DNA of 57,402 nucleotides from Anaerolineae bacterium (GTDB taxonomy: Bacteria > Chloroflexota > Anaerolineae > B4-G1 > DUEL01). The translations under genes and the position numbers were made by a program. The stretch's first letter is position 1. Every line of letters starts with the position of its first letter. Shown in pieces: positions 2,889-51,990 of the stretch. The notes beneath the pieces were generated by a model. It ran no database searches and was not told the origin of the DNA. It saw only the letters and a list, made by a program, of their open reading frames with translations. The stretch lies in assembly GCA_034435875.1 (NCBI GenBank), contig DAOTWL010000023.1:1-57402 (forward strand). Reading direction: 5' to 3'.

Positions 2889-3200
2889 GAGGGCAACAAG
2901 TTGGGGAGGAGAACACCCAATGGGAGTCATCAAACTGAGCGTTTATCTGGATGACCCTTTTATTCGCGAAAAGGCCCGCATCGCCGCTGCGCGGCGCGGC
3001 ATCTCCATCAGTACGTATGTGCTCCAGGCCCTTCGTGACCGGCTGGTCCGGGAGGGGCTGCTCCCGGAGGAGACAAACCCCCAAGAAGCGGCGCGGGCCT
3101 TAGATGCTCTGAGAACCCACATCGGACCCATCGGTATTCCGGTGTGCGCGCTCATTGAAGAGGGGCGTACCGAATACGCAGTACGCAATAGGAGGAGCCC

Positions 3201-7127: not shown

Positions 7128-8006
7128 TTACTCCAACTCCAGCGTCACATTGCCGATCCCGGCGGTCAAGGTCACCTCCAGGGTTGCCCCGGCCTGCCCG
7201 TAGGCCGGATTGCGGTACACGCCCCCGGAGAGTTGCCAGTCGCCACGGGTCTGCACATTGCTCAGCCCGCCTTCCACCACCACCCGTACCCCCACATCCC
7301 GGGGGAAGCGGAGCGTCAGAGACCCAACGCCGGCCGTCACCTGGATCCGGGCAGAATCGGCCCAGGGACCGGTGAAATCCAGCATCAGGTTGCCGATCCC
7401 GCCCTCCACCTGAACATCCCGGGGGCTGGCGTAGCCGATTCCCCGGACCTCCACGTTGGCCGCCCCGGCGCGGAGCCGGAGCCAGTCCATCGGGACGGTG
7501 ATCGGCGCATCCCAGCGCACGACCATATCCGAGGCGCCGGTCTCCAGGGAGAAATCGGTCAGCGCCAGGCCGCCCAGGTCCAGCCGCCCCTTTGCCGCAC
7601 CGACCTGGAGTTTCAGACTCATCGGCACGCGGGGGGCCAGGGCGAGGTCCCATTCATTCTCCGCTCCGGGGCCGGGCATGCCCCGGGTGTCCGGCTGGGC
7701 GACCTTCAGGACCCCGTCTTTCCAGGTCACTTCGGGCTTCCATGCCGGGACGTTGGTCCGGAAGAGGCCGGAGAAGAGCAGGTCCGGCTCTCCGGCGGTT
7801 AACGTCAGTTCCCCCACGCCCAGGGTGATTTTCACCTGGGCGGCCGTCGTGCCCTCCAGAGGAATCTCCTCCCGGTACTCCTGCATCGGCCCGACCTCCA
7901 GAGTGGGCACGCCGGGCAGGGAAATGCCGGGGACCGTAATGGTGCATGCCAGACTGCTCAGCACCAGCAGGAACAGTACAGACCAGACGATTCTTTTCCG
8001 CATCAT
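7128..8006 (-). CDS. lipoprotein with toastrack-like (DUF2154/DUF4097-like) beta-rich domain
   Basis: Lipobox LSSLAC. Repetitive beta segments (LGVGELTLTAG, QVGAAKGRLDLGG, VTAGVGSLTLRF, LTAGIGNVTLELE). Confidence 0.6.
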   Translation of the reverse strand: MMRKRIVWSVLFLLVLSSLACTITVPGISLPGVPTLEVGPMQEYREEIPLEGTTAAQVKITLGVGELTLTAGEPDLLFSGLFRTNVPAWKPEVTWKDGVLKVAQPDTRGMPGPGAENEWDLALAPRVPMSLKLQVGAAKGRLDLGGLALTDFSLETGASDMVVRWDAPITVPMDWLRLRAGAANVEVRGIGYASPRDVQVEGGIGNLMLDFTGPWADSARIQVTAGVGSLTLRFPRDVGVRVVVEGGLSNVQTRGDWQLSGGVYRNPAYGQAGATLEVTLTAGIGNVTLELE

Positions 8007-8020
8007 CCCTCCTTCTCACT

Positions 8021-8069
8021 CACGTTTCACGTTTCACGTTTCACGTTTCACGTTTCTCTCTTCACGTTT
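8021..8069. repeat. heptanucleotide tandem repeat (CACGTTT)x5 plus 2 degenerate units
   Basis: cacgttt at 8021, 8028, 8035, 8042, 8049 and 8063. Fills the gap between the anti-sigma stop and the toastrack start. Confidence 0.9.
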
Positions 8070-8605
8070 CAGGAAGCCACCGGCTGCCAGCGGCGCAGCA
8101 GGCCCCACCACAGGCCCCCCAGAAGCAGCGCCGTCGTCAGGATGCAGAGGGCCAGCGGCAGGGTCTGGACGACCAGCGCGCCGGCCAGCAGGCCCAGGGA
8201 GTTCAAAAGCAGGCGGGCCGCCCCGAGAAGGTGTTCCAGCAGGACGCCCCCACTGTGGGAGAGGGCCACCAGGAAGCCCGCCCAGCCGGGCAATGTCCAG
8301 AGAATCGGGAGGAACCCGACGAAAAGGACAAGAGCGGTCCCCGCGGCCAGCGCCAGGCCACCGAAAACGGCGCGCCGCCGGGCCCGGCGCCGGTCCATCT
8401 GCGCCATCACCCGCCCGACGAACCCCGGCGGTGGGGAAAGGATCGGCGCATGGCGCAGGACTTCCTCGGCGGCCTGCAATTGCTCCCACCGGACCCGGCA
8501 GCGATCACAGGCCACCAGGTGAGCCTGCAGGGCCTGCCACTCTTCGTCCGGCAGTTCGCCATCCAGTGCTTTCATCATTTTTTCCAGAGCCGTTTCACAC
8601 TCCAT
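8069..8605 (-). CDS. anti-sigma factor (zf-HC2 type, membrane-anchored)
   Basis: Trimmed to ATG 8605. MECETALEKMMKALDGEL..HLVACDRCRVRWEQL, followed by TM helices. Overlaps the sigma gene end by 11 nt. Confidence 0.75.
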   Translation of the reverse strand: MECETALEKMMKALDGELPDEEWQALQAHLVACDRCRVRWEQLQAAEEVLRHAPILSPPPGFVGRVMAQMDRRRARRRAVFGGLALAAGTALVLFVGFLPILWTLPGWAGFLVALSHSGGVLLEHLLGAARLLLNSLGLLAGALVVQTLPLALCILTTALLLGGLWWGLLRRWQPVAS

Positions 8606-9191
8606 TTTCCCTACTCCGTATTCCGTACTCCGTACTCCGCACTCCGCATTCCCTACTCCCGGCTTCCTCCCCCAGCATCTGGGCCAGCGCCAGACGGGCA
8701 CGGTGGAGCCGGGATTTCACCGCGCTGACCGTGCTGCCCAGAATCTGGGCCATCTCTTCGTAGGAGCAATCGTACCAGTACCGCAGAGTAACCGCCGCCC
8801 GGTCCTCGGCGGGGAGGCGCATCAGCAATCGCTGGATTCGCTCCCGGGTCTCCCAGGCGACAACCGCATCGTCGGGGTTGGCGCCGACTCCTCCGAGGAT
8901 GAGTTCGTCATCCAGTACCAGGACGGGCCGACGGCGGCGGATGCGGTCCACGCAGTAGTGGGCCGTGATGGAGAGCAACCAGTTCCGGAAAGGACGGGCG
9001 GGGTCGTACTGGCTCAGGTTGCGGAAGGCCCGCAGAAAGGTCTCCTGAGCCGCGTCCTCCGCCTCCATCCGTTCCCCCAGCATCCGGTAGGCCAGGTTGT
9101 ACACCGGCGTCTGGTAGAGGTGGACCAGATGGGCGAAGGCGTCTGCATCTCCCTTTTGGGCTTGCTGGATCCAGGTTGCTTCGTCTATCAT
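8595..9191 (-). CDS. ECF-type RNA polymerase sigma-70 factor
   Basis: Region 2 (FAHLVHLYQTPVYNLAYRMLG..AEDAAQETFLRAF) and region 4 (SYEEMAQILGSTVSAVKSRLHRAR). Confidence 0.9.
   Translation of the reverse strand: MIDEATWIQQAQKGDADAFAHLVHLYQTPVYNLAYRMLGERMEAEDAAQETFLRAFRNLSQYDPARPFRNWLLSITAHYCVDRIRRRRPVLVLDDELILGGVGANPDDAVVAWETRERIQRLLMRLPAEDRAAVTLRYWYDCSYEEMAQILGSTVSAVKSRLHRARLALAQMLGEEAGSRECGVRSTEYGIRSRENGV
8612..8660. repeat. heptanucleotide tandem repeat (TACTCCG-like) x7
   Basis: tactccg tattccg tactccg tactccg cactccg cattccc tactccc. Lies inside the last ~22 codons of the sigma ORF. Confidence 0.9.
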
Positions 9192-13416: not shown

Positions 13417-13452
13417 CGCCACTCCGCTGCGCTCCGTGGCTGACTATGAGCG
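13417..13452 (-). repeat. single REP unit (GCCAC..GTGGC variant, inverted)
   Basis: Reverse complement reads CGCTCATAGTCAGCCACGGAGCGCAGCGGAGTGGCG. Confidence 0.75.
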
Positions 13453-13520
13453 CTTTGACTCCACTTGTGGCATTTTTCGTAACTACCTACGCCAGGGGCT
13501 AAAAGCCCAATGCTAACATT

Positions 13521-13612
13521 TGCCCCCACCCCCTTTATCCCCCCTCCCCCATTGCTGCGCTTGGGGGAGGGGGTTGGGGAGAGGGGAGGGGCCGGGGGAG
13601 GGGTGAGGCCAG
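13521..13612. repeat. G-rich palindromic repeat block (GGGGAGGGGTGAGG family)
   Basis: CCCCCACCCCCTTTATCCCCCCTCCCCC..GGGGGAGGGGGTTGGGGAGAGGGGAGGGGCCGGGGGAGGGGTGAGG. Same family at 9375-9575, 19915-20240, 21021-21088 and 47156-47200. Confidence 0.7.
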
Positions 13613-13778
13613 CGCGCCGAAAAAGTGGGCATCCCAGCCACCGGGGGGAGGTAGTTACCATTTTTCAGACATGCTCTAAGGCAAGGGTTTCGTCATCCGT
13701 TGATGCCTGCCGTCCACTGGTTGCCTCAATTATAGGCAAAACCCCTTGCCTTATCCACACTGAATTCACAGCCCGCGT

Positions 13779-13806
13779 TTGCAATTCCGGCCGAACGCGG
13801 TAAAAT
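13779..13806 (+). promoter_or_regulatory. candidate sigma70-type promoter of folC
   Basis: TTGCAA, 16 nt, TAAAAT. The RBS CAGGAGA and ATG 13829 follow. Confidence 0.45.
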
Positions 13807-13828
13807 GTTTTCTTTGACAGGAGAACCC

Positions 13829-15187
13829 ATGACCTACCGGGAAGCGATAGAATACCTTCACAGCCTGACCGATTACGAGAAACGGCGGATTGAACGCTAT
13901 TCGCCCCAGACGCTGGACCTTTCCCGCGTGGAGCGGCTGCTGGATATGGTGGGGAACCCCCACCGCCTCTACCCGTCCGTCCACGTCGCCGGGACGAAGG
14001 GGAAGGGCTCCACTTCGGCGATGATAGAGTCGGTCCTGCGCGCGGCCGGGTACCGCACCGGCTTCTACACCTCCCCCCACCTCCACACCTTCCGCGAGCG
14101 CATCCGCATCGGCGCCGACCTGATTTCCCGCGAAGAGGTCGTCTCGCTGGTGGAGGAATTCCGCCCGCTCATCGCCCGCATCCCCGGCATCACCACCTTT
14201 GAGGCCATTACCGCCATCGCCTTCACCTACTTCGCCCGCCAGAAGATAGCCGTCCTGGTGGCCGAGGTCGGCCTGGGCGGACGGCTGGACGCCACCAACG
14301 TCCTCCGTCCGGAAGTGGCGGTCATCACTTCTCTCAGCCTGGACCACACCTATCTGCTGGGCAACACCCTGCCGGAGATTGCGGCGGAGAAGGCCGGGAT
14401 TATCAAGGACGGTGTCCCCGTCGTCACCGCGCCGCAGCGCCCGGAGGCGCTGGCCGTGATAGAGGAGACGGCGCGCGCCCGCCATGCCCCCCTCACCGTG
14501 GTGGGACGGGACTGGGTCTGGGAGCCCGGCCCCTTTGACCTGAAGGGGCAGTCCTTCACTTTTCGCCGGGGCGCAAGCTTCATCTTGCGCTCCGATTTAG
14601 AGGGGGATTACTGGATACCGCTATTGGGCCGTCACCAACTGGAAAACGGGGCCACGGCCCTGGCCGCGCTCCAGATTCTCCTGGAACGGGGCTTCCGCCT
14701 CTCCCGCGCGGCGGCTCAGGAGGGGTTGAAAAACGTGCAGTGGCCGGGGCGGCTGGAAATCCTCAGCACCGACCCGCTGGTGGTGGTGGACTGTGCCCAT
14801 AACCCGTACTCCACCGAAGTCCTGCGGGAATCGCTCCGGGAGTGGTTTCCGGGCCGCCGCTGGGTGCTCATCTTCGGTGCGTCGGCGGATAAGGACATCC
14901 CCGGGATGCTGCGGGCGCTTCTGCCGATGACCGACTACCTCATCGTCACCCGCTCCGACCACCCCCGCTCCGCCACCCCGGTGGAACTGGCGGACATGGC
15001 CGCGTCGGTCGGCGGCGGGGCGGAGATTGCCGTCAACATCCGGCGCGCGCTCCAGCGGGCCCTGACGCTCCTGAAGCCGGATACCGGCATCCTGGTCACC
15101 GGCTCCATCTTCCTGGTCGCCGAGGCCCGGGAGGAATGGGCCGAACACAACGGCCAACCCGTCCCCGAAAACGACCGGACGGATTAG
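13829..15187 (+). CDS. folC: folylpolyglutamate synthase / dihydrofolate synthase
   Basis: [12 protein letters not shown]-loop and Mur-ligase-family layout. ATG 13829 follows CAGGAGA. Confidence 0.9.
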
Positions 15188-15193
15188 ACGGAT

Positions 15194-15221
15194 CACGGAG
15201 TACGCAGTACGGAGTATGAAG
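15194..15221. repeat. heptanucleotide tandem repeat (TACGGAG-like) x4
   Basis: cacggag tacgcag tacggag tatgaag, between the folC stop and lon. Confidence 0.8.
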
Positions 15222-18650: not shown

Positions 18651-18707
18651 GGGACGCGGATGAAACATCCGCGTTCATCTGCGTTTATCTGCGTTTATCC
18701 GCGTCCC
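18651..18707. repeat. decanucleotide tandem repeat x4 bracketed by a 10-bp inverted repeat
   Basis: GGGACGCGGA-tgaaaca-TCCGCGTTCA TCTGCGTTTA TCTGCGTTTA TCCGCGTCCC. Confidence 0.85.
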
Positions 18708-22641: not shown

Positions 22642-22674
22642 TATCCTGCTCCGTGCGACCTGCGACCCTGCGAC

Positions 22675-23937
22675 ATGCACATCGGCATTGACTACACCGC
22701 CGCCATCCAGCAGCGGGCGGGAATCGGGAGATATACCCGAGAACTGGTCGGCGCGCTGCTCCGGCTGACCGTTCGAAGTCGGGCACAAAGCGACAGCGGA
22801 GTGCCGGTTCGTAGCCAGGCACGAAGCGATAGCGGAGTGCCGGTTCGTAGTGAGGCACGAAGCGATAGCGGAGTGCCGTACCCGGAAGAGGACTACCGCT
22901 ATACCCTCTTCGCGGCCGCCGGCCGTCCGTTCGTTCGTAGTCAGGCACGAAGCGATAGCGGAGTGCCGTTCGTCCCATCCGTCCGCCTCCGCTTCCTGCC
23001 CATCAGCGACGAGTGGGCCGCCCGCCTCTGGCATCGGGCCCGCCTGCCCATCCCGGTGGAGGTCTTCACGGGCCCGGTGGACCTCTTCTACTCCCCGGAC
23101 TTCGTCCTTCCCCCCACCCGGCCGCGCACCCGGACCCTGCTCACGGTCCACGACCTCTCCTTCCTGCACTACCCGGACCACTTCGTCCCCAAACTGGTGC
23201 GGTATCTGGAGCGGGTGGTGCCGGCGTCGGTGGCCCGGGCCGACCGGGTGCTGGCGGATTCGGAGGCCACCCGCGCCGACCTGATCCGCCTGCTGGGGAC
23301 GCCGCCGGAGAAGGTGGAGGTGCTCTACAGCGGGGTGGACGCCCGCTTCCGCCCGGAGCCGGAACCCGGAGAACGGGAACGGTTGCGGGCCCGCTACGGC
23401 CTGGACCGGCCCTACGTCCTCTCCGTGGGCACGCTCCAGCCGCGCAAGAACTACGTCCGGCTCATCCGCGCCTTTGCCCGCCTCCCGGATACCGGACGGG
23501 TGCTGGTCATCGCCGGCGGCCGGGGCTGGCTCTACGCGTCGGTCCTGGAGGAGGCGGCCCGTCATCCCGACCGGGTGCGGGTCCTGGGGTTTGTGGAGGA
23601 TGAGGACCTGCCCGCCCTCTACCGGGAGGCGGACCTCTTCGTTTTCCCGTCGTTCTACGAGGGGTTCGGGTTGCCGGTTCTGGAGGCGATGGCCTGCGGG
23701 GTGCCAGTGGTCTGCTCGGGGGTTTCCAGTTTGCCGGAGGTGGCGGGGGACGCGGCGCTCCTGGTGGACCCGGAGGACGAAGAAGGGCTGAGTCGGGCCA
23801 TGCAGCGGGCGCTGGAGGATGAGGAACTGCGGGGGGAGATGACGGTGCGAGGGCTGGCGCGCGCCGCTCTGTTCACCTGGGAGCGGGCCGCGCGGCAGTT
23901 GCTGAGGGTCATAGGGGAACGGGCCGGGCGCTTCTGA
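22675..23937 (+). CDS. GT-B fold glycosyltransferase (family 1/4) carrying in-frame REP insertions
   Basis: MHIGIDYTAAIQQRAGIGRYTREL N-terminus. C-terminal domain FPSFYEGFGLPVLEAMACGVPVV (E-x7-E region). Confidence 0.85.
   Translation: MHIGIDYTAAIQQRAGIGRYTRELVGALLRLTVRSRAQSDSGVPVRSQARSDSGVPVRSEARSDSGVPYPEEDYRYTLFAAAGRPFVRSQARSDSGVPFVPSVRLRFLPISDEWAARLWHRARLPIPVEVFTGPVDLFYSPDFVLPPTRPRTRTLLTVHDLSFLHYPDHFVPKLVRYLERVVPASVARADRVLADSEATRADLIRLLGTPPEKVEVLYSGVDARFRPEPEPGERERLRARYGLDRPYVLSVGTLQPRKNYVRLIRAFARLPDTGRVLVIAGGRGWLYASVLEEAARHPDRVRVLGFVEDEDLPALYREADLFVFPSFYEGFGLPVLEAMACGVPVVCSGVSSLPEVAGDAALLVDPEDEEGLSRAMQRALEDEELRGEMTVRGLARAALFTWERAARQLLRVIGERAGRF
22771..22878 (+). repeat. three abutting 36-nt REP units inside the GT4 ORF
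   Basis: Units at 22771, 22807 and 22843 (GTTCG[AT]AG..GGCAC..GTGCCG), translated as VRSRAQSDSGVP/VRSQARSDSGVP/VRSEARSDSGVP. Confidence 0.9.
22933..22968 (+). repeat. fourth 36-nt REP unit inside the GT4 ORF
   Basis: GTTCGTAGTCAGGCACGAAGCGATAGCGGAGTGCCG, translated as VRSQARSDSGVP. Confidence 0.9.
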
Positions 23938-27663: not shown

Positions 27664-28965
27664 CTAATAACTCAAAGAAGCAGGACGCAGGAAAGATGGG
27701 CATCCTGCTTCCTGCATCCCGCATCCACTCCCGAGGATGCGCCAGATTTCCCGCAGGGTCGGGCGTTTGCCGTAGATGAGCAACCCCATCCGGAAGAGTT
27801 TGGCCCCGAACCAGAGCGCGGCCGGAATGGAGAGGAGCAGGGCACCGATGCTCCCGGCGACATCCACCCAGGGCACCTCCCCCAGTGGGACGCGCAGCAT
27901 CATCATCGTCGGCGCGGTAAGGGGGAAGAAACTGAGGGCCCGGGCCAGCGGCGCGTTCGGGTTGATCATCACGAAACTGGCCAGCATATAGGGGATGACG
28001 GCGATGAAGGAGAAAATGCCCGCCAGTTGCTGGCTCTCCCGCATCGTCGTCCCCAGCGCGCCCACACCCGCCATCAGGACAGCGTAGAGCAGATAACCCA
28101 GGAGATAGTAGACCACACCCAGGACGAAGACCCGCGCGGGGATGCCAATACGGCCCACCATGGCCAGGAGGCTCGCCATGCCGCCGGTGAAGCCCCAGGC
28201 GCTCGCCAGCCAGATGAGCACCTGGGTCAGCCCCACCGCGCCCAGACCCAGCACTTTCCCGGCCATCAGTTCGGTGGGGCGGACCGAGGAGATGATAATT
28301 TCCATGATACGGTTCTCCTTCTCCTCGGCGACGCTCTGGAGGAGGTAGCCGGAGGAGGAGAAAATGGTCATAATCAGGAAGACGGCCAGGAGGTAGGGGA
28401 CCAGGAAATTAAAAAACGTCCCCCCGCCTCGCTCCTGGCCCGTGCCGGAGATGATGCGGGATTGGAGCCTCTCCAGCGGGTCGGCAGCGCGGCGCCCGAA
28501 GGCCGGGTCCACCCGGCCCGCCAGCAGGTGGGTGATCAGAAAGTTTCGCACCCGCTCCGAATCCGCCAGCGCGGCCTCGCCGAAACTCTCTCGCGTCAAC
28601 GCGGTGACCTCTCCCGTCTCCAGGTAATCCTCGCTGATGACCCGCACAGCCTGGAGTTCGTCAGTGCGCAGCGCGGCTTCCGCCGCTTCCTGGCTCTCGT
28701 AGAGGATAAAGGACTCCTGGTACTCCGGCAGGATGGGGGTAAAGTACCCGGAGCGGTCCACGACGCCGATGGGCTTGCGGCCCACGTCAAACTGCCGCTC
28801 CAGCCAGTCCGCCCCAGCGTCGCCCCGGGGCAGCAGGAGCGCGGTGAGCACCAGGCCGATCACTCCCAGCGCCGGGACGATGGCCGTCATAATGATGAAT
28901 CCGGTCCGGCGGACGTTGGTCAGGTACTCATGCCGGGCGATGGTCCAGATTTTGCGCCAGTTCAT
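27664..28965 (-). CDS. ABC-2 type transporter permease (NatB-like)
   Basis: MNWRKIWTIARHEYLTNVRRTGF, then a large extracytoplasmic loop and 5 C-terminal TM helices. AGGAGGA lies before the ATG. Confidence 0.8.
   Translation of the reverse strand: MNWRKIWTIARHEYLTNVRRTGFIIMTAIVPALGVIGLVLTALLLPRGDAGADWLERQFDVGRKPIGVVDRSGYFTPILPEYQESFILYESQEAAEAALRTDELQAVRVISEDYLETGEVTALTRESFGEAALADSERVRNFLITHLLAGRVDPAFGRRAADPLERLQSRIISGTGQERGGGTFFNFLVPYLLAVFLIMTIFSSSGYLLQSVAEEKENRIMEIIISSVRPTELMAGKVLGLGAVGLTQVLIWLASAWGFTGGMASLLAMVGRIGIPARVFVLGVVYYLLGYLLYAVLMAGVGALGTTMRESQQLAGIFSFIAVIPYMLASFVMINPNAPLARALSFFPLTAPTMMMLRVPLGEVPWVDVAGSIGALLLSIPAALWFGAKLFRMGLLIYGKRPTLREIWRILGSGCGMQEAGCPSFLRPASLSY
27679..27730. repeat. 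short GCAGGA/TCCTGC heptamer hairpin (mini version of 51848-51988)
   Basis: AGCAGGACGCAGGA-aagatgggca-TCCTGCTTCCTGC, followed by atcccgcatcc. Overlaps the last codons of the permease ORF. Confidence 0.7.
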
Positions 28966-29482: not shown

Positions 29483-29514
29483 GGAATGACCGAATGACAG
29501 AATGAGCAATAACG
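29483..29514. repeat. octanucleotide tandem repeat (GAATGAC-like) x4
   Basis: gaatgacc gaatgaca gaatgagc aataacgg, upstream of the ATPase remnant. Confidence 0.7.
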
Positions 29515-33491: not shown

Positions 33492-34649
33492 ATGAGAATC
33501 GGAGTTCTGACTGGAGGGGGCGACGTCCCTGGACTGAATCCCTGCATCAAGGCACTGGTCTATCGGGCCGTGGATGAAGGCCACGAGGTGGTCGGCATCC
33601 GCCGGGGATGGGCCGGACTCCTCTACTACAACCCCGACGACCCATCTCCCCAGCCGGAGAACGCGATCCCCCTGGATAAGGCCATTGTCCGGACCATTGA
33701 CCGGACCGGCGGCACGTTTCTCCACACGTCCCGCACCAATCCCAGCCGGGTGGCGCCGGATAAGGCCCCGGCGTTCCTGAATCCGGAGCAGTTCCCGGTG
33801 GATAAAAACGGGACCGTGGACTTCACCTCCCACGTCCTGCGGGTACTGGAACACCTCAAGATAGACGTCCTGGTGCCCATCGGCGGTGAGGACACCCTGG
33901 GGTATGCGGCCCGAATCCATCGTGAGGGCTTTCCTATCGTTAGCATCCCCAAGACGATGGATAACGACGTCTTCGGTACCGACTACTGCATCGGCTTCTC
34001 CACCGCCGTTACCCGCAGTGTCCGCTTTATCCACCAACTCCGCTCCACCGCCGGCTCCCATGAACGCATCTGCGTGGTGGAACTCTTCGGCCGTCACTCC
34101 GGCGAGACCTCTCTGATCGCCGCCTATCTGGCCGGAGCCGACCGGGCTATCATCTCGGAAGTCCCCTTTGACATTGAGAAACTGGCCCGTCTGCTGATCA
34201 AGGACAAGTACGAGAACCCCAGCCGCTATGCCATCCTGACTATCTCCGAAGGGGCGCGCGAGATCGGGAAAGACGTCATCCAGTCCGGCGTCCCCGATCC
34301 CTACGGCCACAAGAAACTGGGCGGCATCGGTGCCGTGACCGCCAAGCGGCTGGAGCAGATGACCGGCGAGGGGACAATGTGCCAGGAACTGGCCTACCTG
34401 ATGCGCTCCGGCGAGCCCGACGCGCTGGACATTATGGTCGCCGTCAACTTCGCCAATACCGCGATGGACCTGATCCAGGAGAAGAAGTTCGGCCGGATGG
34501 TGGCCCTGCGGGAAGGACGGTACACCGATGTAGGTGCCGAATCGCCGACGCTGGGAGTCAAGCATGTGGATGTCCGGGCGCTGTACGATGTGGACGAGTA
34601 TCGCCCCAAAGTGATGCACGTTCACGGGAAGCCGATGTTTTTGTACTGA
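33492..34649 (+). CDS. pfp: 6-phosphofructokinase, PPi-dependent-type signature
   Basis: [19 protein letters not shown] (Asp at the E. coli PfkA-104 equivalent) and PKTMDND (Lys at the 124 equivalent). Confidence 0.8.
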
Positions 34650-34686
34650 AGCGTGAAACGTGAAGCATGAAGCGTGACGTGAAACG
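34647..34686. repeat. heptanucleotide tandem repeat (GTGAAAC/GTGAAGC) x6
   Basis: tgaagcg tgaaacg tgaagca tgaagcg tgacg tgaaacg, between the two pfk genes. Reverse complement of the 8021-8069 unit. Confidence 0.85.
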
Positions 34687-35743: not shown

Positions 35744-36989
35744 ATCCGCCGCTGCTCAGGGCCACCGTCAGGTCAGCGCCGCAGGCTACCCGCAGGACGG
35801 GCACCCGCAGCGCGCGCAGCGCCGCCGCCAGTTCCTCCGTCCCGGGCGGGCCGCCGAAGGTGGCCGCGTCCAGCAGGACCACCACCGGCCGCAGCCCCCG
35901 GCGGACCAGTTGGTCTGCGGCCACCGCGACCTCCCGTCGGGTGGAGGGGGTAATCAGGACAACCGTGCTCCCGCGCGGGAGGTGGCGGGCCTGGACGCCC
36001 AGGAGTGCCGAAAAGGAGAGGTCGCCGTCGGCCCGAACCAGGGCCAGCGCCTCCAGCATCTTCCGCAGTTGCCGCCCGCCCCGGTCCGGCGGAAGGACCG
36101 TGAGCCCGGCCCCCTGGCAGACCAGCCCCACCGCCCGTCCCCGCCGCAGGAAGTACCGCCCCACCGAGGCGGCAATCGTCACCGCGTATTCTTCTGTGGA
36201 AGGCGGCAGGGTGACGGGGCCGAAGGGCCGCCAGAGGAGTTCGTCCGCCGGAGCGGCCGGGATGGAGGGAAGGGCGTGGTGGACGGCGCGCTCGGCGTCC
36301 ACGAACATCCAGACCTCCGCCAGGGGGTCCAGTTCAAACTCTTTGACGATGAGCCGGTCCCGGCGGGCCGTGCTGGGCCAGTGGATGCGGTTCAGGGGGT
36401 CGCCGGGGGCGTACTCCCGCACGCCGGCGGCGTTGGGGGTGATCTGGTGGGTCCGGCGGCGCAGCGCCTCCCCGCCGGGCAGGAGCCCCGGCGGCGAGGG
36501 GAACGACCGTACCTCCACCGTCATCGGGTAGACGACCAGGGTGGCCGTGGGGGGGAACTCTCGCCGGACCGGGAAGAGGCCGAAGGGGTCGCCGGAGCGG
36601 ATTTCGGTGGGGCCCAGGGGGAAGACGCCCCGCTGAGTTAAACGGAGACGCGCCCAATAGGGGTAAGCACTTTGCCCGCGAAGCATTGTTAATACCCGCG
36701 AGCTCCTTGTAACAGCAAGGGGCGACCGATCACGCACTTCCACCCACCATCGCGTCATACGGCCGGTGTTTTTAACTTCAAATCGCTCCTCAAGAATCTG
36801 CCCAACTTGAGCCCGGAAAATACGCGTCCGGCGACACACTTCTATTCCGCGCAATGCTGTCGCCGACCAGATGCGGCTGACCAGCAGGACCAGCGCCCAG
36901 AGATAGGTCAGATGGGCGTAGAGGGGGTTGCCGGTGAGGCCCAGGGCGAGGGCGCTGGCGGCGAAGAGTCCCAGGATGAGCCAGAGCAT
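35742..36989 (-). CDS. DUF58 domain protein (MoxR-associated, vWA-like)
   Basis: Two N-terminal TM helices. REYAPGDPLNRIHWPSTARRDRLIVKEFE motif. Confidence 0.8.
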   Translation of the reverse strand: MLWLILGLFAASALALGLTGNPLYAHLTYLWALVLLVSRIWSATALRGIEVCRRTRIFRAQVGQILEERFEVKNTGRMTRWWVEVRDRSPLAVTRSSRVLTMLRGQSAYPYWARLRLTQRGVFPLGPTEIRSGDPFGLFPVRREFPPTATLVVYPMTVEVRSFPSPPGLLPGGEALRRRTHQITPNAAGVREYAPGDPLNRIHWPSTARRDRLIVKEFELDPLAEVWMFVDAERAVHHALPSIPAAPADELLWRPFGPVTLPPSTEEYAVTIAASVGRYFLRRGRAVGLVCQGAGLTVLPPDRGGRQLRKMLEALALVRADGDLSFSALLGVQARHLPRGSTVVLITPSTRREVAVAADQLVRRGLRPVVVLLDAATFGGPPGTEELAAALRALRVPVLRVACGADLTVALSSGG

Positions 36990-36990
36990 A

Positions 36991-37046
36991 GCCGGAAGCC
37001 GATAGCCGTTAGCCGGTAGCCGATAGTCGGGAGTCGGTTGTCGGGA
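36991..37046. repeat. heptanucleotide tandem repeat (GCCGATA-like) x8
   Basis: gccggaa gccgata gccgtta gccggta gccgata gtcggga gtcggtt gtcggga. Spans the moxR-DUF58 junction and the last ~12 codons of moxR. Confidence 0.9.
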
Positions 37047-37986
37047 GGACGTCGCCGCCGGGGACGGGAACCTGGCGGAGGATTTCTTCCACCATCTCCT
37101 CGGCGGTCACGTCCCGCATCCGGGCCGTGGGGCCGATAATGACCCGGTGGCCCAGGGCCGGGAGGGCCAGCGCCTTCACGTCGTCCGGGAGGACGAAGTC
37201 CCGCCCGTGGATAGCCGCGCGGGCCTGCCCGGCCCGGTAGAGGGTGAGGCTCCCGCGCGGGCTGGCCCCCAGGTAGATGTCGGGGTATTCTCGGGTACGG
37301 CGGGTCAGTTCCACGATGTACCGCTTCACCGCCGGCGCCACATAGACGGCCCGGATGGCCTCCTGGGCCTGCAGCAACTCCTCCACCGAGGCCACCGTCT
37401 CCAGTTCCTCTATCGGATGACGGTACTGCTGGCGCTCCAGGATGCGCACTTCGTCCTCCACCGCCGGGTAGCCCAGGCGGATACGCAGGAAGAAGCGGTC
37501 CAGTTGCGCCTCCGGCAGGGGGAAGGTGCCCTCGTACTCAATGGGGTTCTGGGTTGCCAGCACCATGAAGGGGCGGGGGAGGGGCCGGGTGACGCCGTCC
37601 ACGGTGACCTGGCGCTCCTCCATGGCCTCCAGGAGCGCCGCCTGGGTCTTGGGCGTGGCCCGGTTGATCTCGTCGGCCAGGACGATCTGGGCCATGATGG
37701 GGCCGGGGCGGAACTCAAACTGACGGGTGGCCTGGTTATAGATGGAGACGCCGGTGACGTCGCTGGGGAGCATGTCGGGGGTGAACTGAATGCGGCTGAA
37801 GGAGCAACCCAGCGAGCGGGCGATACTCCGGGCCAGCATAGTCTTGCCGGTGCCGGGGACGTCCTCAATGAGCAGGTGGCCCTGGCAGAGGAGGCCGATG
37901 ACCACCAGTTCCACCACCTCCCGCTTGCCGACGATCACCCGCTCCACGTTGGCGATGAGCCGTTCGGCGAAGGATTGGACGGACAT
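37009..37986 (-). CDS. MoxR-family AAA+ ATPase
   Basis: [12 protein letters not shown] Walker [10 protein letters not shown] Walker [23 protein letters not shown]. Confidence 0.92.
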
Positions 37987-37989
37987 AGA

Positions 37990-38028
37990 GAATCGGGGAA
38001 TCGGGGAATCGGAGAATCGGAGAATGAA
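37990..38028. repeat. octanucleotide tandem repeat (AATCGGGG/AATCGGAG) x4-5
   Basis: gaatcggg gaatcggg gaatcgga gaatcgga gaatgaaa, immediately upstream of moxR. Confidence 0.85.
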
Positions 38029-49266: not shown

Positions 49267-50391
49267 ATGCTGGTCCTTCCACTCCGCTGGCTCCTCTTCG
49301 GTCTGTTTCTGACCGTTGCCGCAGCCATCCTCCTGGCCCTCTGGCTGGACCGCCGCCGCGCCGGGCGGCGCGCGGCGGAGACCTTCGCCGACGCCACCCT
49401 CCACGCCGTCCTGGAGCACGCCCCCTTCGGCTGGGTCGTCCTGGAGAGCGCAGAACGGTACGTCTACGCCAACGAGTACGCCCGCCATCTGCTGGACCTG
49501 AAGGCCCCCGCCGGCCCCGTCCCGGCCGTGGAATGGGGATTCCACCTGGACGACGACCGCGCCGACGTCCGGCGGGGCCGGGCTCCTGAGGGCCGCTACC
49601 GCGTCCTCCGCCTCCCCTCCGGCCGGGCCGTCCGCTGGTGGCTGATGTCCGGCCGACGGTGGGACTATCTCTTCCTGCTGGACGTCACTTCCCAGTACGA
49701 GGCCGAAGAGGCCCGTACCCAACTCTTCGCCGGCCTCTCCCACGAACTGCGCACCCCGGTGGGCGCCATCCTCACCCATCTGGAAGTCCTCCGCCTGCCC
49801 GACATCCCCGAAGCGACCAAAGCCCAATCCCTGCAACTGCTGCGGGCGGAGACCCGGCGGCTGGCCCGCATGGTCCATCTGATGCTGGAACTGGGCCGCC
49901 TGGAGACCTCCCCGGAGATAGACCGACGCCCGATAGACCTGGTGGACCTGGTGGAGCGGGCCATATCCACCCTGGCCTCCCCGTCAGAAGAACGGGGCAT
50001 CCGCTTCTCCCTGGAAGCCGATTCTCCTCTCCCCACCGTCTGGGGGGACCCAGACCGGCTGATGCAGGTCTTCCTGAACCTGCTGGATAACGTCCTCAAA
50101 CACTGCCGTCCGGGCGACCGCGCCACCGTCCTCCTCCGGCGGACGGGGGACGGCGTCCTCTGTGTGATTCGGGACACCGGACCGGGCATTCCGGCGGAAC
50201 ATTTGCCGCACCTCACCCGTCGTTTCTATCGGGCGGCGAAGCAGGAGGTAGAAGGGAGCGGGCTGGGCCTGGCGCTGGTGGAGGAGATTCTCCGCCGCCA
50301 CGGGAGCCGCCTGGAGATTTCCAGCCAAACCGAGGGAGAGACCGGGACATGCGTACAATTCGTCCTGCCGACCATGCCTTCCAGATTGTGA
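49267..50391 (+). CDS. sensor histidine kinase (HisKA plus HATPase_c)
   Basis: N-terminal TM segment. H-box FAGLSHELRTPVGAI. NLLDNVLKH, DTGPGIP, GSGLGLALV. Confidence 0.88.
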   Translation: MLVLPLRWLLFGLFLTVAAAILLALWLDRRRAGRRAAETFADATLHAVLEHAPFGWVVLESAERYVYANEYARHLLDLKAPAGPVPAVEWGFHLDDDRADVRRGRAPEGRYRVLRLPSGRAVRWWLMSGRRWDYLFLLDVTSQYEAEEARTQLFAGLSHELRTPVGAILTHLEVLRLPDIPEATKAQSLQLLRAETRRLARMVHLMLELGRLETSPEIDRRPIDLVDLVERAISTLASPSEERGIRFSLEADSPLPTVWGDPDRLMQVFLNLLDNVLKHCRPGDRATVLLRRTGDGVLCVIRDTGPGIPAEHLPHLTRRFYRAAKQEVEGSGLGLALVEEILRRHGSRLEISSQTEGETGTCVQFVLPTMPSRL

Positions 50392-51848
50392 CCCCCTTCC
50401 TTCGTCGCTGGGGGTGGCTTCTGGGGTTGCTGTTGGCGCTTCTGGCCTGCGCGCTGATTCCCGTCCCCGGCTACGTCATCATTGCGCCGGGAGGGAACAC
50501 CCCCCTCATCCCTGTCGCGCTGGGCCCGCAGATGCGGCTGGACCCGCCCTTCGCCCGCCCCGGCGACGAAGTCCGCCTCCACGTCACCGACCGTACCCCC
50601 TGGACCCACGTCCTTCTGGCCGTGAACGGCGTCGCCCTCCACCCGGAGTCCTGGGAATCCGGCCCGGGCGGACAGTGGACCTGGACGTTCCACCTGGCCC
50701 TCCCCACCGGCCCGTCGGAAATCGTCTTCTACCACAGTTGCGACACCGGCTGTCGGGAGCGGGGACGGATGATGCTGGGCGAGCCGCCGTCTCCCTCCTC
50801 CGCCCCGCTGCCCACCAAACTGGGGCTGGTCTTCCCCCACCCGGACCGGGACTGGCACGGGCGCAGCGGCTGGGCGGTGGAGGTCACCTACGTCCGGCGG
50901 GCCCAGGAGCCCGGCTGGGGGGTAGACGACCTGGCCGCGAAGGTGTACCGGCATCGGGCGAAGGGGTTGCGGGTGCTGGTGCGGGTGGACTACGACTACA
51001 ACCAGTCCATCCCGCCGACCGGCGACTATCTGGCCCTGGCGGAGTATCTGGACTACCTGGCGCGCCTGGCCCGGGACGACCGTCTCCGGGAAGTCTACGG
51101 CTACGTCCTGGGGAGCAGTTACAACGGCCTGGACCAGAACGCGCTGGCCCCCGACCGTCCGGTGACCCCGGAGTGGTATGCCCGGGTCTTCAACGGCTAC
51201 GGCGAACCCGTCCACCACACCGACAACGCCGTCCAGGTGATGCGGGCCGAAAATCCCCACGTCCGGGTGCTGGTGGGACCGGTCCGGCCCTGGAACACCG
51301 ACCAGGACGGCCTCCACAAGTACCGCGTGGATGCGCCCTGGCTCAACTACATGAACACCCTGGTGCGCGAGGTGGACGAATCGGCCCGGGCGAAGGCCGC
51401 CGCTGGGATCCCCCTGGCCGCCCCGGACGGCTTTGCCGTCCAGGCTCCAGGCCGCCCGGATGCCCCTGAACTGGGCGGGTCCGGCTCCGCAGAGCCTCAG
51501 ACCGACCTCCGGCGGCCGGAATGGAAGGGCGCCCAGGCCGGCTTCCGCGTCTATCGGGAGTGGCTGGACATCATCAACGCCTACCCGTCCACGCGGGGGC
51601 TCCCCGTCTACATCACCTCGGCCAACACCTTCATTCCGGCGGTGGGCGTCCCTCCGGCCCAGAATTATCCCCGGGGCTGGCTCCGTTCGGCCTTGGCGGT
51701 GGTGAACGGCGAGCCTCAGATTCAGGCCCTCTGCTGGTTTCTGGACGACCTGCCCGGGGACACCCAGTGGGAGAACTTCAGCCTGACCCGCCGTCGGGGC
51801 CGCCTGGTGGACGCGGCGGAGGAGTTTGAGGAACTGCTGAAAAGATAG
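50349..51848 (+). CDS. membrane-anchored hypothetical protein, possibly with a glycoside-hydrolase-like TIM-barrel domain
   Basis: TM segment WGWLLGLLLALLACALI, an Ig-like segment, then alternating beta/alpha pattern (GLRVLVRVDYDYNQ, YVLGSSYNG, RVLVGPVRPWN, PVYITSANTF). An in-frame GTG at 50388 gives a GTGA overlap with the kinase stop. Confidence 0.5.
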   Translation: MRTIRPADHAFQIVTPFLRRWGWLLGLLLALLACALIPVPGYVIIAPGGNTPLIPVALGPQMRLDPPFARPGDEVRLHVTDRTPWTHVLLAVNGVALHPESWESGPGGQWTWTFHLALPTGPSEIVFYHSCDTGCRERGRMMLGEPPSPSSAPLPTKLGLVFPHPDRDWHGRSGWAVEVTYVRRAQEPGWGVDDLAAKVYRHRAKGLRVLVRVDYDYNQSIPPTGDYLALAEYLDYLARLARDDRLREVYGYVLGSSYNGLDQNALAPDRPVTPEWYARVFNGYGEPVHHTDNAVQVMRAENPHVRVLVGPVRPWNTDQDGLHKYRVDAPWLNYMNTLVREVDESARAKAAAGIPLAAPDGFAVQAPGRPDAPELGGSGSAEPQTDLRRPEWKGAQAGFRVYREWLDIINAYPSTRGLPVYITSANTFIPAVGVPPAQNYPRGWLRSALAVVNGEPQIQALCWFLDDLPGDTQWENFSLTRRRGRLVDAAEEFEELLKR

Positions 51849-51988
51849 CAGGAAGCAGGAAGTAGGGAGCAGGAAGTAGGAAGTAGGAAGGAAAGATGCA
51901 AGACCTTTTTCCCATCCTGCGTCCTGCATCCTCCGTCCTGCATCCTGCGTCCTGCATCCTGCGTCCTGCATCCATCCCGCATCTTGCG
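51848..51988. repeat. two opposed heptamer-repeat blocks forming a long imperfect hairpin
   Basis: (GCAGGAA/GTAGGAA)x6 at 51848-51889 and (CATCCTG/CGTCCTG)x8-10 at 51912-51988. Each arm unit pairs with its opposite unit at 6 of 7 positions. Confidence 0.9.
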
Positions 51989-51990
51989 CC

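Follow-up and report, generated by a model that had tools for sequence, protein, structure and literature searches.

Tandem arrays with a period of seven nucleotides, less often eight or ten, lie at gene boundaries throughout a 57,402-nt stretch of DNA (the window, whose numbering is used below) from a hot-spring Chloroflexota bacterium, and they raise the question of where such arrays come from and what they do for the genes that they separate. Bacterial repeats of this kind go back in the literature to 1990, when Mazel et al. reportedly described the STRR heptanucleotides of heterocystous cyanobacteria, and by 2007 it had been noticed that heptamers are in excess of repeats with other periods. 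The searchable literature contains no agreed origin or function for them, only a guess at slippage and ideas of regulation put forward without tests (PMC4692102, PMC4679880). The genus studied here offers a natural experiment, ranging from array-rich genomes with many cassettes built around a PF05635 gene to array-poor relatives with only a decayed cassette, and single junctions can be caught empty, occupied, swapped or decaying. Repeat units common to solo arrays and to the arms of these cassettes provide a testable lead on the origin of heptamer repeats.

Methods

The source genome (G000) is a 3.19-Mb Thermoflexales MAG of 399 contigs, and its gene coordinates were obtained with a crude codon-usage gene caller. 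Tandem repeats were called with TRF, and the expected number of period-7 rows came from simulating these contigs with a 3rd-order Markov model. Units were considered shared between arrays only on an exact match, evaluated against a letter-shuffled null; by our own estimate, one-mismatch matches would more often than not be due to chance.

Heptamer arrays across the genome

Tandem arrays of period 7 make up the main class of repeats in the source genome, with 443 merged arrays of at least three copies; the 470 TRF rows of this period and copy number exceed the 20 simulated ones about 23-fold. They are mostly intergenic (342 of 443, or 77%, against about 16% non-coding DNA; binomial p ~ 1e−175), unlike arrays of periods 6, 9 and 12, which are mostly coding. 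A first-pass annotation of the window had reported period-7 arrays, some of 8 or 10 nt, at gene boundaries and had proposed cataloguing them genome-wide: TRF recovers them at the places it gave, except for the degenerate run at 3168–3192, together with three loci missing from its list (22654–22678, 27700–27726 and the inverted pair 51847–51890/51913–51973), and the 443 arrays, 77% of them intergenic, constitute that catalogue. About 100 canonical units are in use; 49 arrays are built from AAACGTG, and the top 12 families make up roughly half of all period-7 arrays. The 80 arrays of the GTGAAAC family occur in both orientations and have no flanks in common, identical composite repeat modules are found at unrelated loci, and arrays are present inside ribosomal-protein operons. 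Most arrays are solo, and those pairs that neighbour each other are inverted in 14 of 43 cases. Tandem units, excess, intergenic position and recurring families together place the arrays in the descriptive class of STRR-like repeats, or long heptamer SSRs; an Rfam search of the whole window returned no match at gathering score.

Typically, an array reaches from the stop codon of one gene to the Shine-Dalgarno (SD) site of the next. The upstream stop lies a median 7 nt away and the downstream start a median 17 nt, and in 124 of 315 cases the array is in direct contact with the stop codon. Given the lengths of the spacers, arrays are over-represented between co-directional genes and about 2-fold under-represented between divergent ones (chi-square p = 2.5e−5). 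Their ends adjoin the SD or start codon in both array orientations, with the SD motif inside the array itself in only 14 of 90 start-proximal cases. The flanking genes have unrelated functions, and both ORFs beside an array stay intact in congeners with differing copy numbers. Contingency (phase-variation) SSRs are a poor description of such arrays, which lie between stop and SD, neither inside an ORF nor in a promoter spacer.

In the first-pass annotation, each recurring family kept one orientation relative to transcription. This is true of the four examples in the window and moderately so of ACGGAGT genome-wide, which is sense-biased (16 vs. 4, p = 0.012), but it breaks down for GTGAAAC, with 18 sense vs. 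18 antisense arrays when exact units are counted and 29 vs. 28 when one mismatch is allowed. Across all families, strand asymmetry is weak but real (p = 0.004). Of the two genome-wide biases that the annotation proposed to look for, the positional one is pronounced (77% intergenic), while that of strand is weak overall and absent from the GTGAAAC family.

Junctions of the window and their turnover

The gap between the stop of an anti-sigma gene and the GGAGG/ATG of a toast-rack-domain gene (7128–8006) is filled by a solo array at 8020–8071 on the minus strand, (AAACGTG)x7.4 in gene sense and (TCACGTT)x7.4 on the plus strand (TRF), and the anti-sigma TGA (8069–8071) sits inside its first unit. 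Each of the 7 congeners in which both flanks were found has an orthologous array, with about 1 to 7 copies and drifting units. Another solo array on the minus strand, 8599–8659, separates the ECF sigma domain from the start codon of the anti-sigma gene (ATG at 8605) and reads (CGGAGTA/GGGAGTA)x7.4 in gene sense (TRF: (TCCGTAC)x7.4 at 8608–8659). Because this unit is stop-free in every frame, the sigma ORF (8595–9191) reads through the array, which adds about 29 residues to its end, Sigma70_r4_2 ending at residue 169 of the 198 in its product; the congener counterparts measure 57–155 nt and use varied units (e.g., CTACTCC, CTTCCGG). Solo arrays are unstructured as RNA according to folding z-scores, including these two (z = −1.7 at 8020–8071 and z = +0.7 at 8599–8659).

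On the plus strand, the short array (ACGGAGT)x3.1 (15195–15216, TRF) runs into the ATG of lon, and its GGAG is the SD motif of that gene. The murF–lon junction retains ACGGAGT/ACGGAAT in two to three copies in G002, G005, G006, G008, G011, and G012, and unrelated sequence takes the place of the array in G007, G010, and G013. Two phosphofructokinase genes are separated by the solo array (TGAAACG/TGAAGCG)x6 (34647–34686, plus strand, TRF), whose first unit is the upstream TGA stop and which is followed by the SD and ATG. At this junction GTGAAAC is found at 4–11 copies in G001, G005, and G008, and another unit, (ATCGCNN)n, in G002, G006, G011, and G012, while G003 has a 21-nt gap with no array and no GTGAAAC-like seed. 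The MoxR-to-DUF58 junction carries an array at 36988–37047 on the minus strand, (CGGCTAN)n in gene sense (TRF: (ATAGCCG)x5.6 and a variant), whose upstream part (37012–37047) supplies the final 12 codons of MoxR and whose end adjoins the DUF58 start codon; its copy number differs among G003, G005, G008, G011, and G012. The octamer array (CGATTCYC)x4.8 in gene sense (37988–38025, minus strand, TRF), also unstructured as RNA, ends 1 nt before the MoxR ATG. Its counterpart in G003 is one copy only (agagaatc), and its octamer is the arm of a PF05635 cassette in G001.

A gene-less inverted arm pair at 51847–51973 (plus strand, TRF), composed of (AGCAGGA)x6.3, a 22-nt loop and (CATCCTG)x8.7, fills the gap between the gene at 50349–51848 and a response-regulator gene. 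It folds into a single long stem with a mismatch at every 7th position (as RNA, −75.1 kcal/mol, z = −8.0). The same arm family occupies this junction in G001, G002, G008, and G012, a different arm pair (ACGGAGT/ACTCCGT) is found in G005 and G011, and the junction of G006 is empty (16 nt). Its unit GCATCCT is also that of an arm of a cassette of the source genome on contig C145. The same unit forms a short array at 27700–27726 (minus strand; (GCATCCT)x3.9 on the plus strand, TRF), within a crude gene call (27664–28965) and about 36 nt from the 5′ end of that call. With complementary AGCAGGA-like sequence just upstream on the plus strand, this array is probably a small arm pair.

Two further short arrays match cassette arms of G005: (TGCGACC)x3.4 (22654–22678, plus strand, TRF), upstream of a GT4 glycosyltransferase gene, has the unit of a (CCTGCGA)x16 arm, and the octamer array at 29484–29505 (minus strand; (GAATGACA)x2.8 on the plus strand, TRF) is a rotation of a (CAGAATGA)x6.9 arm. 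The decamer array (CATCCGCGTT)x3.9 (18666–18704, no strand assigned, TRF), in the gap before the gene at 18797, has a counterpart of only about 1–2 copies in G008. A degenerate heptamer run of about three copies (TACCGAA TACGCAG TACGCAA; 3168–3192, plus strand), read by eye and below the TRF score threshold, stands directly before the AGGAGG and ATG of leuS.

In 36 of 55 junction comparisons with congeners (65%), at most one copy of the unit of the source genome was found. A single junction may hold the same unit at 1–11 copies, another unit, or nothing, and the genes that flank swapped or empty junctions are about 90% identical between close relatives. The copy-number variation observed is between species and stepwise at orthologous junctions. 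Heptamer arrays are fast-changing and dispensable.

PF05635 cassettes

PF05635 (“23S rRNA intervening-sequence protein”, an Avd-like four-helix bundle) has 14 matches in the source genome, 13 of them above the Pfam cut-off. Arrays of 7- or 8-nt units, mostly inverted, lie on both sides of 8 of the 14 genes, and three more are array-flanked at contig ends; when arrays are strictly demanded on both sides, 7 of 11 assessable PF05635 genes have them, compared with 2% of other genes (Fisher p = 7.5e−10). In other species, including members of Kiritimatiellota and Verrucomicrobiota, both sides carry arrays at 18 of 24 assessable loci, a sample biased to one subfamily and to Chloroflexota because it was retrieved with a single protein query (the paralogs of the source genome are only 26–29% identical, too divergent for a profile). 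Flanking arrays were found at 20 of 20 PF05635 loci of G001, G005, and G016.

All cassettes examined sit between protein-coding genes, with the PF05635 ORF as their sole ORF, and no target-site duplication was seen at cassette sites. Seven of 8 cassettes have arms that pair (−24 to −153 kcal/mol), and this mutual pairing appears in the MFE fold of the whole cassette; the arms of cassette C228 are direct, not inverted. A G·U wobble test on the arms gave similar sense and antisense duplex energies of mixed sign and no strand preference, and thus no evidence of RNA-level selection on arm pairing. A strict purine-arm-first rule, followed by eye in about 6 of 7 gene-bearing cassettes, was abandoned with a ratio of 5 to 3 in gene-less pairs.

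Cassette site C is empty in G002, G003, G005, and G011 (31–37 nt, no array), intact in G006 with an arm unit that differs from that of the source genome, and reduced in G012 to two decayed arms and about 30 nt of the ORF. At site B, the PF05635 gene of G002 has decayed to a pseudogene, and its arms number about 2 copies. The cassette thus demonstrably decays into a gene-less arm pair.

Units shared by solo arrays and cassette arms

The exact unit of cassette arms from other genomes occurs in 90 of 421 solo arrays, ten times the null of 8.3 (p < 0.0005), and 8 of the 11 arrays of the window carry an exact cassette-arm unit. The number of PF05635 genes correlates with the (AAACGTG)3 load across 41 genomes (Spearman 0.67, uncorrected for phylogeny, with array-rich genomes assembling worse). 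Array density falls from 18.3 per 100 kb in the source genome to 5.0 in G002, which has no intact PF05635, and 1.7 in G013, and PF05635-poor congeners have 4–11 times fewer arrays. A lineage-specific slippage preference acting on arms and solo arrays alike could be a common cause of the shared units and the correlation in load.

At the junctions of the window itself, no PF05635 gene was found in any congener examined, so that the link of these arrays to the cassettes consists of shared units and a genome-level correlation, not of direct descent. GTGAAAC, the commonest family, flanks no intact cassette in the source genome; the nearest cases are a (TGAAACG)x16 array next to a fragment resembling PF05635 in G001 and, in G016, arms of (GTTTCAG)n. 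Array turnover between congeners, inverted arm pairs and units common to cassette arms were all absent from the first-pass account.

Origin of the arrays

On balance, we favour the view that the arrays are slippage-prone, STRR-like repeats from a pool common to IVS-like cassettes, mostly neutral and occasionally co-opted. They would be simple-sequence repeats that evolve fast, mostly with a period of 7 and sometimes of 8 or 10, whose insertion or expansion would be confined to the untranslated gap between stop and SD, the sole place where a compact operon tolerates them. Copy number would be altered by replication slippage or unequal exchange, and units would drift and then homogenise within each array. 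The unit families would represent a genus-wide pool, common to solo arrays and inverted cassette arms, and no independent local inventions; for GTGAAAC, an origin from local seeds is contradicted by 80 arrays without common flanks, by both orientations and by the seedless empty site in G003. Loss of the ORF by internal deletion would turn a cassette into a gene-less arm pair such as 51847–51973, and solo arrays (8020–8071, 34647–34686) would probably be one arm each, or offshoots that the pool gave rise to through slippage. The genes on either side would mostly experience them as neutral, unstructured spacers, some of them co-opted, with GGAG units acting as ribosome-binding sites, TGA units as stop codons, and stop-free units being translated as C-terminal tails. 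The long hairpin of paired arms is a predicted and likely RNase III or terminator site.

The arrays could instead be pure polymerase-slippage microsatellites without a causal tie to PF05635, in which case cassette arms would be one more intergenic substrate turning repeat-like, and shared units would reflect sequence-dependent slippage or tolerance. This takes up the proposal of Mrazek, in the form quoted in PMC4692102, that heptamers expand where selection allows, as a property of the replication machinery. Stepwise copy-number differences at orthologous junctions speak for it, the single-copy counterpart of the 37988 octamer in G003 fits growth in place from local sequence, and most arrays are solo, with no cassette at any window junction in any congener and none intact beside GTGAAAC in the source genome. 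The differing arm units of the orthologous cassettes in the source genome and G006 likewise suggest that arms evolve like any array. However, slippage alone leaves unexplained the 80 arrays of one family without common flanks, the identical composite modules at unrelated loci, and the empty junction without a seed for the unit that its relatives carry there. It is also at odds with a PF05635 association that is very strong and extends across phyla, with the observed decay of cassettes to gene-less arm pairs, and with exact unit sharing at ten times the null, and we regard it as possible but unlikely.

Heptamer arrays can be mistaken for regulatory elements. A function as cis-acting RNA, in which a single-strand RNA-binding protein (S1, cold-shock or CsrA-like) would bind them and tune downstream translation, follows a proposal made for the TAACTGA repeats of Beggiatoaceae (PMC4679880). 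Array ends right at the SD and start codon in either orientation, the single-stranded state of solo arrays, the sense bias of ACGGAGT-type units (16 to 4), which supply GGAG, the murF–lon array kept in six congeners and the weak overall strand asymmetry (p = 0.004) are compatible with such a role. Nevertheless, GTGAAAC has no orientation preference (18:18, 29:28), although one would be expected of an RNA-binding site. Different units or none are found at one junction in close relatives, despite flanking genes of about 90% identity, the unit families number about 100, the SD motif lies within only 14 of 90 start-proximal arrays, and the neighbouring genes are functionally unrelated, all of which make this role improbable.

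PF05635 resembles Avd, an accessory protein of diversity-generating retroelements (DGRs; PMC10053308), and its closest PDB relatives, 2GSC and 2RLD, were deposited with five chains each, which might point to synthesis of the arrays by a reverse-transcriptase or telomerase-like activity working with PF05635. Neither the source genome nor 12 of 13 congeners yielded a PF00078 reverse transcriptase in a search in which control genomes score, and the cassettes contain the PF05635 ORF only, unlike a DGR, in which a reverse transcriptase and a template/variable repeat pair adjoin the Avd gene; such an origin is effectively refuted for the genus and highly implausible. That the arrays are artefacts of assembling a fragmented metagenome bin (399 contigs, with 24 contig ends in arrays against 13.9 expected, a weak 1.7-fold excess, and an N-gap inside an array in one congener) is practically inconceivable, because related arrays recur at these junctions in many genomes that were assembled independently, one of them in 30 contigs, and arrays lie inside contigs with intact genes on either side. 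As a proxy for instability, the mild over-representation at contig ends is weak. The arrays may help to break metagenome assemblies, and as the sigma-factor and MoxR tails illustrate, they also inflate or falsely extend ORF calls.

Relation to known repeats

The closest parallel had been seen in the cyanobacterial STRR. The likeness is real in that both are tandem heptamers, dispersed over many intergenic sites and within operons, length-variable and drawn from a limited set of recurring families; it does not extend to the units or the host, Thermoflexales (Chloroflexota) instead of a cyanobacterium, and the families found here are far more numerous (about 100). The STRR units CCCCAGT and CAACAGT have no exact match among the arrays, TTGGTCA matches only 4 of them, and STRR in the strict sense, defined by a cyanobacterial host and the units STRR1–3, does not apply. 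A link to PF05635 cassettes is not known to be part of the STRR description. STRR have also been noted in Calothrix PCC 7601 (PMC4692102).

In the summary given in PMC4692102, Mrazek et al. (2007) found heptamers over-represented among the SSRs of high-GC bacteria that are not host-restricted. Rehm et al. (2015) described GGGAATC arrays in Xanthomonas and GGGGAYT arrays in Nostoc; heptamer arrays of this kind are about 90% intergenic, mostly between co-directional genes and nearly equally on both strands, include many inverted pairs (70–75 in Xanthomonas), differ in length between species and are transcribed (PMC4692102). Intergenic position, co-directional gaps, use of both strands, inverted pairs and interspecies length variation are all shared by the arrays studied here. 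Xanthomonas, however, has essentially one G-rich, quadruplex-capable unit, in contrast to many units, most of them unable to form G4; its array positions are largely conserved between two species, whereas here the unit is missing from 65% of junctions in a congener, and no link to a gene family was reported (PMC4692102), unlike the tie to PF05635. It is suggestive that the PF05635 structure 2GSC comes from Xanthomonas campestris.

The TAACTGA direct repeats described by MacGregor (2015) in intergenic regions of marine Beggiatoaceae, cyanobacteria and Bacteroidetes (PMC4679880) are similar in lying a few nucleotides before start codons, including those of ribosomal-protein operons, and in their patchy distribution with no evident transfer mechanism. 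That system has a single unit in strongly direct orientation at 2–6 copies, for which a translational regulator was proposed (PMC4679880), whereas the source genome uses many units and has its main family in both orientations. Neither TAACTGA, which is absent, nor GGGAATC is among the units used by its arrays.

The cassettes (about 450–630 nt) recall the intervening sequence (IVS) in the 23S rRNA gene of Coxiella burnetii, which measures 428–444 nt and carries an S23p ORF (PMC4990558): in both, complementary termini form a long stem with the PF05635/S23p ORF in the loop, and both are sporadic and regarded as selfish (PMC4990558). In contrast to the 23S rRNA IVS, which occupy helix 25 or 45 and have unique inverted repeats, the cassettes lie between cistrons and have stems made of tandem 7- or 8-nt units. 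More speculatively, a widespread selfish element, of the same kind as ORF-carrying 23S rRNA IVS, would have PF05635 cassettes as its gene-bearing form, and bacterial heptamer arrays (STRRs, the Xanthomonas and Beggiatoa repeats, and those of the source genome) would largely be its gene-less arms and their slippage-grown offspring; a PF05635 pentamer would recognise or stabilise the arms, so that its loss, as in G002, lets arrays decay. We offer this extension tentatively and consider it doubtful.

As small, non-coding, intergenic, multi-copy and sometimes hairpin-forming sequences, the arrays also have features of REP/BIME and MITE elements. Solo arrays differ from these in having no conserved flanks, terminal inverted repeats or target duplications, their identity residing in the tandem unit, and a MITE- or REP-like element was ruled out for the GTGAAAC family, given 80 arrays without shared flanks, with no target-site duplication at cassette sites either. 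As a separate observation, a REP family is also present in the source genome.

Genome-wide distribution of heptanucleotide arrays

Tandem arrays were searched with Tandem Repeats Finder (TRF) in the metagenome-assembled genome whose contig C23 is the window (G000; 3.19 Mb, 399 contigs, 64.8% GC), for which an in-house caller based on codon usage supplied the gene coordinates (2811 genes; 83.6% of the sequence coding). Period 7 was by far the most frequent tandem period among TRF rows with ≥ 3 copies (470 rows; periods 6 and 8 gave 198 and 164), and 20 period-7 rows were obtained when these contigs were simulated with a 3rd-order Markov model. Once merged, 443 period-7 arrays remained, 342 of them lying mostly in intergenic DNA according to our gene caller, by which arrays of periods 6, 9, and 12 were mostly coding. 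Arrays with two flanking genes lay between co-directional (239), divergent (26), or convergent (16) genes; relative to spacer length, co-directional junctions were enriched and divergent promoter regions two-fold depleted (p = 2.5e−5). Arrays span the gap from one gene's end to the next gene's start: the median distance was 7 nt from the stop codon and 17 nt to the start, with 124 of 315 arrays touching the stop. Neighbouring genes include those of ribosomal proteins S10, L22, S19, S13, L24, and L10 as well as gatC, which places arrays within highly expressed operons. Contig ends of G000 fall within arrays 1.7 times more often than expected.

Within the window, TRF recovered the arrays that had been read by eye: (TCACGTT)×7.4 at 8020–8071, (TCCGTAC)×7.4 at 8608–8659, (ACGGAGT)×3.1 at 15195–15216, (TGAAACG)×6 at 34647–34686, (ATAGCCG)×5.6 plus a variant at 36988–37047, octamers at 37988–38025 and 29484–29505, and a decamer at 18666–18704. 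The array listed at 3168–3192 is a degenerate run of ~3 copies that stays under the TRF threshold, and the list omitted arrays at 22654 and 27700 and an inverted pair at 51847–51973. Several arrays contribute to neighbouring genes. In the anti-sigma gene and the first phosphofructokinase (PFK) gene, the TGA stop belongs to a GTGAAAC unit, and the ACGGAGT array directly reaches the lon ATG and provides its GGAG. The MoxR ORF (37009–37986, reverse strand) terminates 12 codons into an array, gaining 12 residues, and the ECF sigma ORF (8595–9191, reverse strand) continues through a stop-free (CGGAGTA)n array, which adds ~29 residues, and stops 10 nt past the anti-sigma ATG. Among congeners, the sigma junction arrays span 57–155 nt and differ by non-multiples of 3, hence the ECF sigma tail must differ in frame or length from one species to another.

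A separate G/C-rich palindromic family, ccctcaccccTCCCCC...GGGGGaggggtgagg, adjoins several arrays (window 13520–13610; G000 contig C261:5551–5700) and also occurs as insertions at congener junctions (loci L010, L012, and L062); part of it was scored by TRF as (GGGGGAG)n, which inflates the AGGGGGG family count. The GC content of the window falls to 56–60% at ~38–46 kb, and a 520-aa ORF at 52741–54303 was missed by the gene caller; these regions may be foreign DNA, unrelated to the arrays.

Orientation of the unit families

The first-pass annotation proposed that the two unit families recurring in the window keep one orientation relative to transcription. This is true of the four cases in the window but not of the genome, where GTGAAAC arrays are split 18:18 between sense and antisense (exact units) or 29:28 (one mismatch allowed). 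ACGGAGT-type arrays did show a sense bias (16:4, p = 0.012), the strand asymmetry summed over 72 families was 122 vs. a null of 97.8 ± 8.4 (p = 0.004), and purine-rich arrays tended toward the upstream stop (rho = −0.24). The 80 GTGAAAC-family arrays, in both orientations, have an end abutting the downstream GGAGG/ATG, apart from which no common flanking sequence was found around them.

Turnover and folding of arrays

Orthologous junctions were compared with 13 congeners (Lon amino acid identity 86–97%). The PFK-PFK junction (34647) carries 4–11 copies of GTGAAAC in G000, G001, G005, and G008, (ATCGCNN)n in G002, G006, G011, and G012, unrelated sequence in G007 and G013, and no array in G003, where the gap is 21 nt (TAA-caggagggggg-ATG). 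At this junction in G012 (locus L017), a (TCGCTTA)n array contains an N-run, after which the end of the upstream gene appears a second time; here the array caused a gap in assembly or scaffolding. Junction 8020 has a CACGTTT-family array in 7/7 congeners with both flanks, with ~1 copy (G006) to ~7 and drifting units. Junction 51847 is empty (16 nt) in G006, bears the arm pair AGCAGGA/TCCTGCA in five genomes, and a different pair, ACGGAGT/ACTCCGT, in G005 and G011; at 37988, G003 has just one copy of the octamer. In 55 junction comparisons, the G000 unit was present in ≥ 3 copies in 7, 2 copies in 12, and ≤ 1 copy in 36, and the spacers of G002 were shorter by a median of 37 nt. The motif (AAACGTG)3 was found in 12/13 congeners (range 0–258 matches; reversed control 0), with a maximum of 459 in another genus of the same family. 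This turnover indicates that arrays are dispensable and short-lived at the genus scale, which argues against a conserved regulatory role.

No excess of structure over shuffles was seen for solo arrays folded as sense RNA (z between −1.9 and +1.3). The pair at 51841–51990 gave a fold of −75 kcal/mol (z = −8.0) with every seventh position mismatched. An inverted arrangement was found in only 14 of the 43 pairs of neighbouring arrays in G000, so most arrays are single.

Arrays flanking PF05635 genes

G000 has 14 matches to PF05635 (23S_rRNA_IVP), 13 of them above the cut-off. Eight of these genes are enclosed by 7- or 8-nt arrays (~3 to 16 copies) with a unit specific to each cassette, and three more, at contig ends, are array-flanked. 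Under a strict both-sides criterion, 7 of 11 assessable PF05635 genes were flanked vs. 47 of 2315 others (Fisher p = 7.5e−10). The arms are complementary in 7/8 cassettes (−24 to −153 kcal/mol), pairing mutually in the whole-cassette fold, and direct in one; since sense and antisense energies are alike, the pairing could act as RNA or DNA. In a cross-species sample (single-protein scan, one genome per species; 34 PF05635 loci in at least 10 contexts), the 24 loci uncut by contig ends had short-period arrays on both sides in 18 cases, on one side in 5, and on neither in 1. Represented among them are a Pontiella isolate (Kiritimatiellota) and a Terrimicrobiaceae MAG. In one subfamily, the arms retain an octamer with a GCAAGT core across protein identities of 92% down to 64%, and the subfamily occupies one shared junction in 8 genomes (G000 and 7 other species). 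Flanking arrays were also present at 20/20 PF05635 loci retrieved from G001, G005, and G016.

One cassette protein shares 92% identity with a protein of a Thermoflexales MAG, which assigns the organism to Chloroflexota, Anaerolineae, Thermoflexales. Among PDB entries, the nearest relatives are 2GSC and 2RLD, both deposited as five chains. A single recent burst is ruled out by the 26–29% identity of the G000 paralogs. PF05635 has been described as Avd-like (PMC10053308); a role as DGR components is ruled out, as no reverse transcriptase (PF00078) was found in G000 or in 12/13 congeners.

Insertion and decay of cassettes

At site C (C261:18481–19114), the full 634-nt cassette of G000 lies exactly between a stop codon and TTGGAGG. 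The site is empty in G002, G003, G005, and G011 (31–37 nt from stop through Shine-Dalgarno (SD) to ATG, without array), has the orthologous gene flanked by another arm unit, (TAATCCC)n, in G006, and has shrunk in G012 to 154 nt, comprising only two decayed arms and the final ~30 nt of the ORF. At site B, G002 (which scored zero for PF05635) has a decayed PF05635 pseudogene with ~2-copy arms. These decay states show that gene-less arm pairs can arise from cassettes. Site A is empty in G002 and G003, holds a cassette with one arm of ~30 copies in G011, and an unrelated two-gene insert in G005 and G006, which its translation suggests to be a nucleotidyltransferase/HEPN pair. The stop-to-SD gap is thus a general landing site for small inserts, and several kinds of small selfish module seem to share the cassette junctions as hot spots. 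At the G000 cassette gaps C261:8071–8579 and 13421–14049, congeners have other small inserts (L050, L051, and L053), and G003 has what looks like an antitoxin/PIN pair beside a cassette remnant.

Repeat units common to arrays and cassettes

Among 421 solo intergenic arrays of G000, 90 had a unit identical (exact, any rotation or strand) to a cassette-arm unit of other genomes, vs. 8.3 for letter-shuffled units (p < 0.0005). At the family level sharing was 18/126 (null 2.8), with G000's own arms 64 (null 6.6), and in the window 8/11 arrays matched. PF05635 count and AAACGTG load were correlated (Spearman 0.67 for the full set of 41 genomes, 0.67 within and 0.51 outside the genus, phylogenetically uncorrected). 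G000, with 14 PF05635 matches, has 18.3 7/8-nt arrays per 100 kb (0.82% of its DNA); G002, with no intact gene, 5.0 (0.15%); and G013, with one fragment, 1.7 (0.06%). No cassette was found at the window junctions in any congener compared, and no intact G000 cassette is flanked by the main family, GTGAAAC.

Published work already describes heptamers that are in excess, intergenic, present on both strands, arranged in inverted pairs, and variable in length (PMC4692102), heptamers near start codons in operons (PMC4679880), and 23S rRNA elements with a stem and an S23p ORF excised by RNase III (PMC4990558); in the literature searched, no paper linked PF05635 to heptamer arrays, and the one mentioning PF05635 does so in a DGR context. 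Our conclusion is that these repeats are STRR-like and prone to slippage, that only the untranslated junction tolerates them, and that they are mostly neutral for neighbouring genes, with occasional co-option as SD, stop codon, or protein tail; they form part of a pool of repeats on which IVS-like PF05635 cassettes also draw. Solo arrays may descend from cassette arms, or one slippage regime may have shaped both.

Independent slippage cannot generate the composite modules seen repeatedly at unrelated loci: (CTGACSA)n(CTACCGG)n at four, and a second module of ~300 nt in two copies (C159:1–322 and C254:182–421) upstream of unrelated genes. In the latter, (ACAGACC)n and (GGTCTGT)n form an arm pair, followed by a unique ~70-nt spacer (copies ~90% identical) with a promoter-like TTTCCC...TATGAT, then (GATGCAG)n, SD, and ATG; the whole resembles a portable unit of terminator, promoter, and leader assembled around arrays. 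A family of ~200-aa ORFs (G000 C227:34–609 and C298:7822–8121; G001 C459) aligns with PF05635 only over its central ~50 residues and may represent divergent or fused relatives of the cassette protein; one of them in G001 lies immediately downstream of a (TGAAACG)×16 array.
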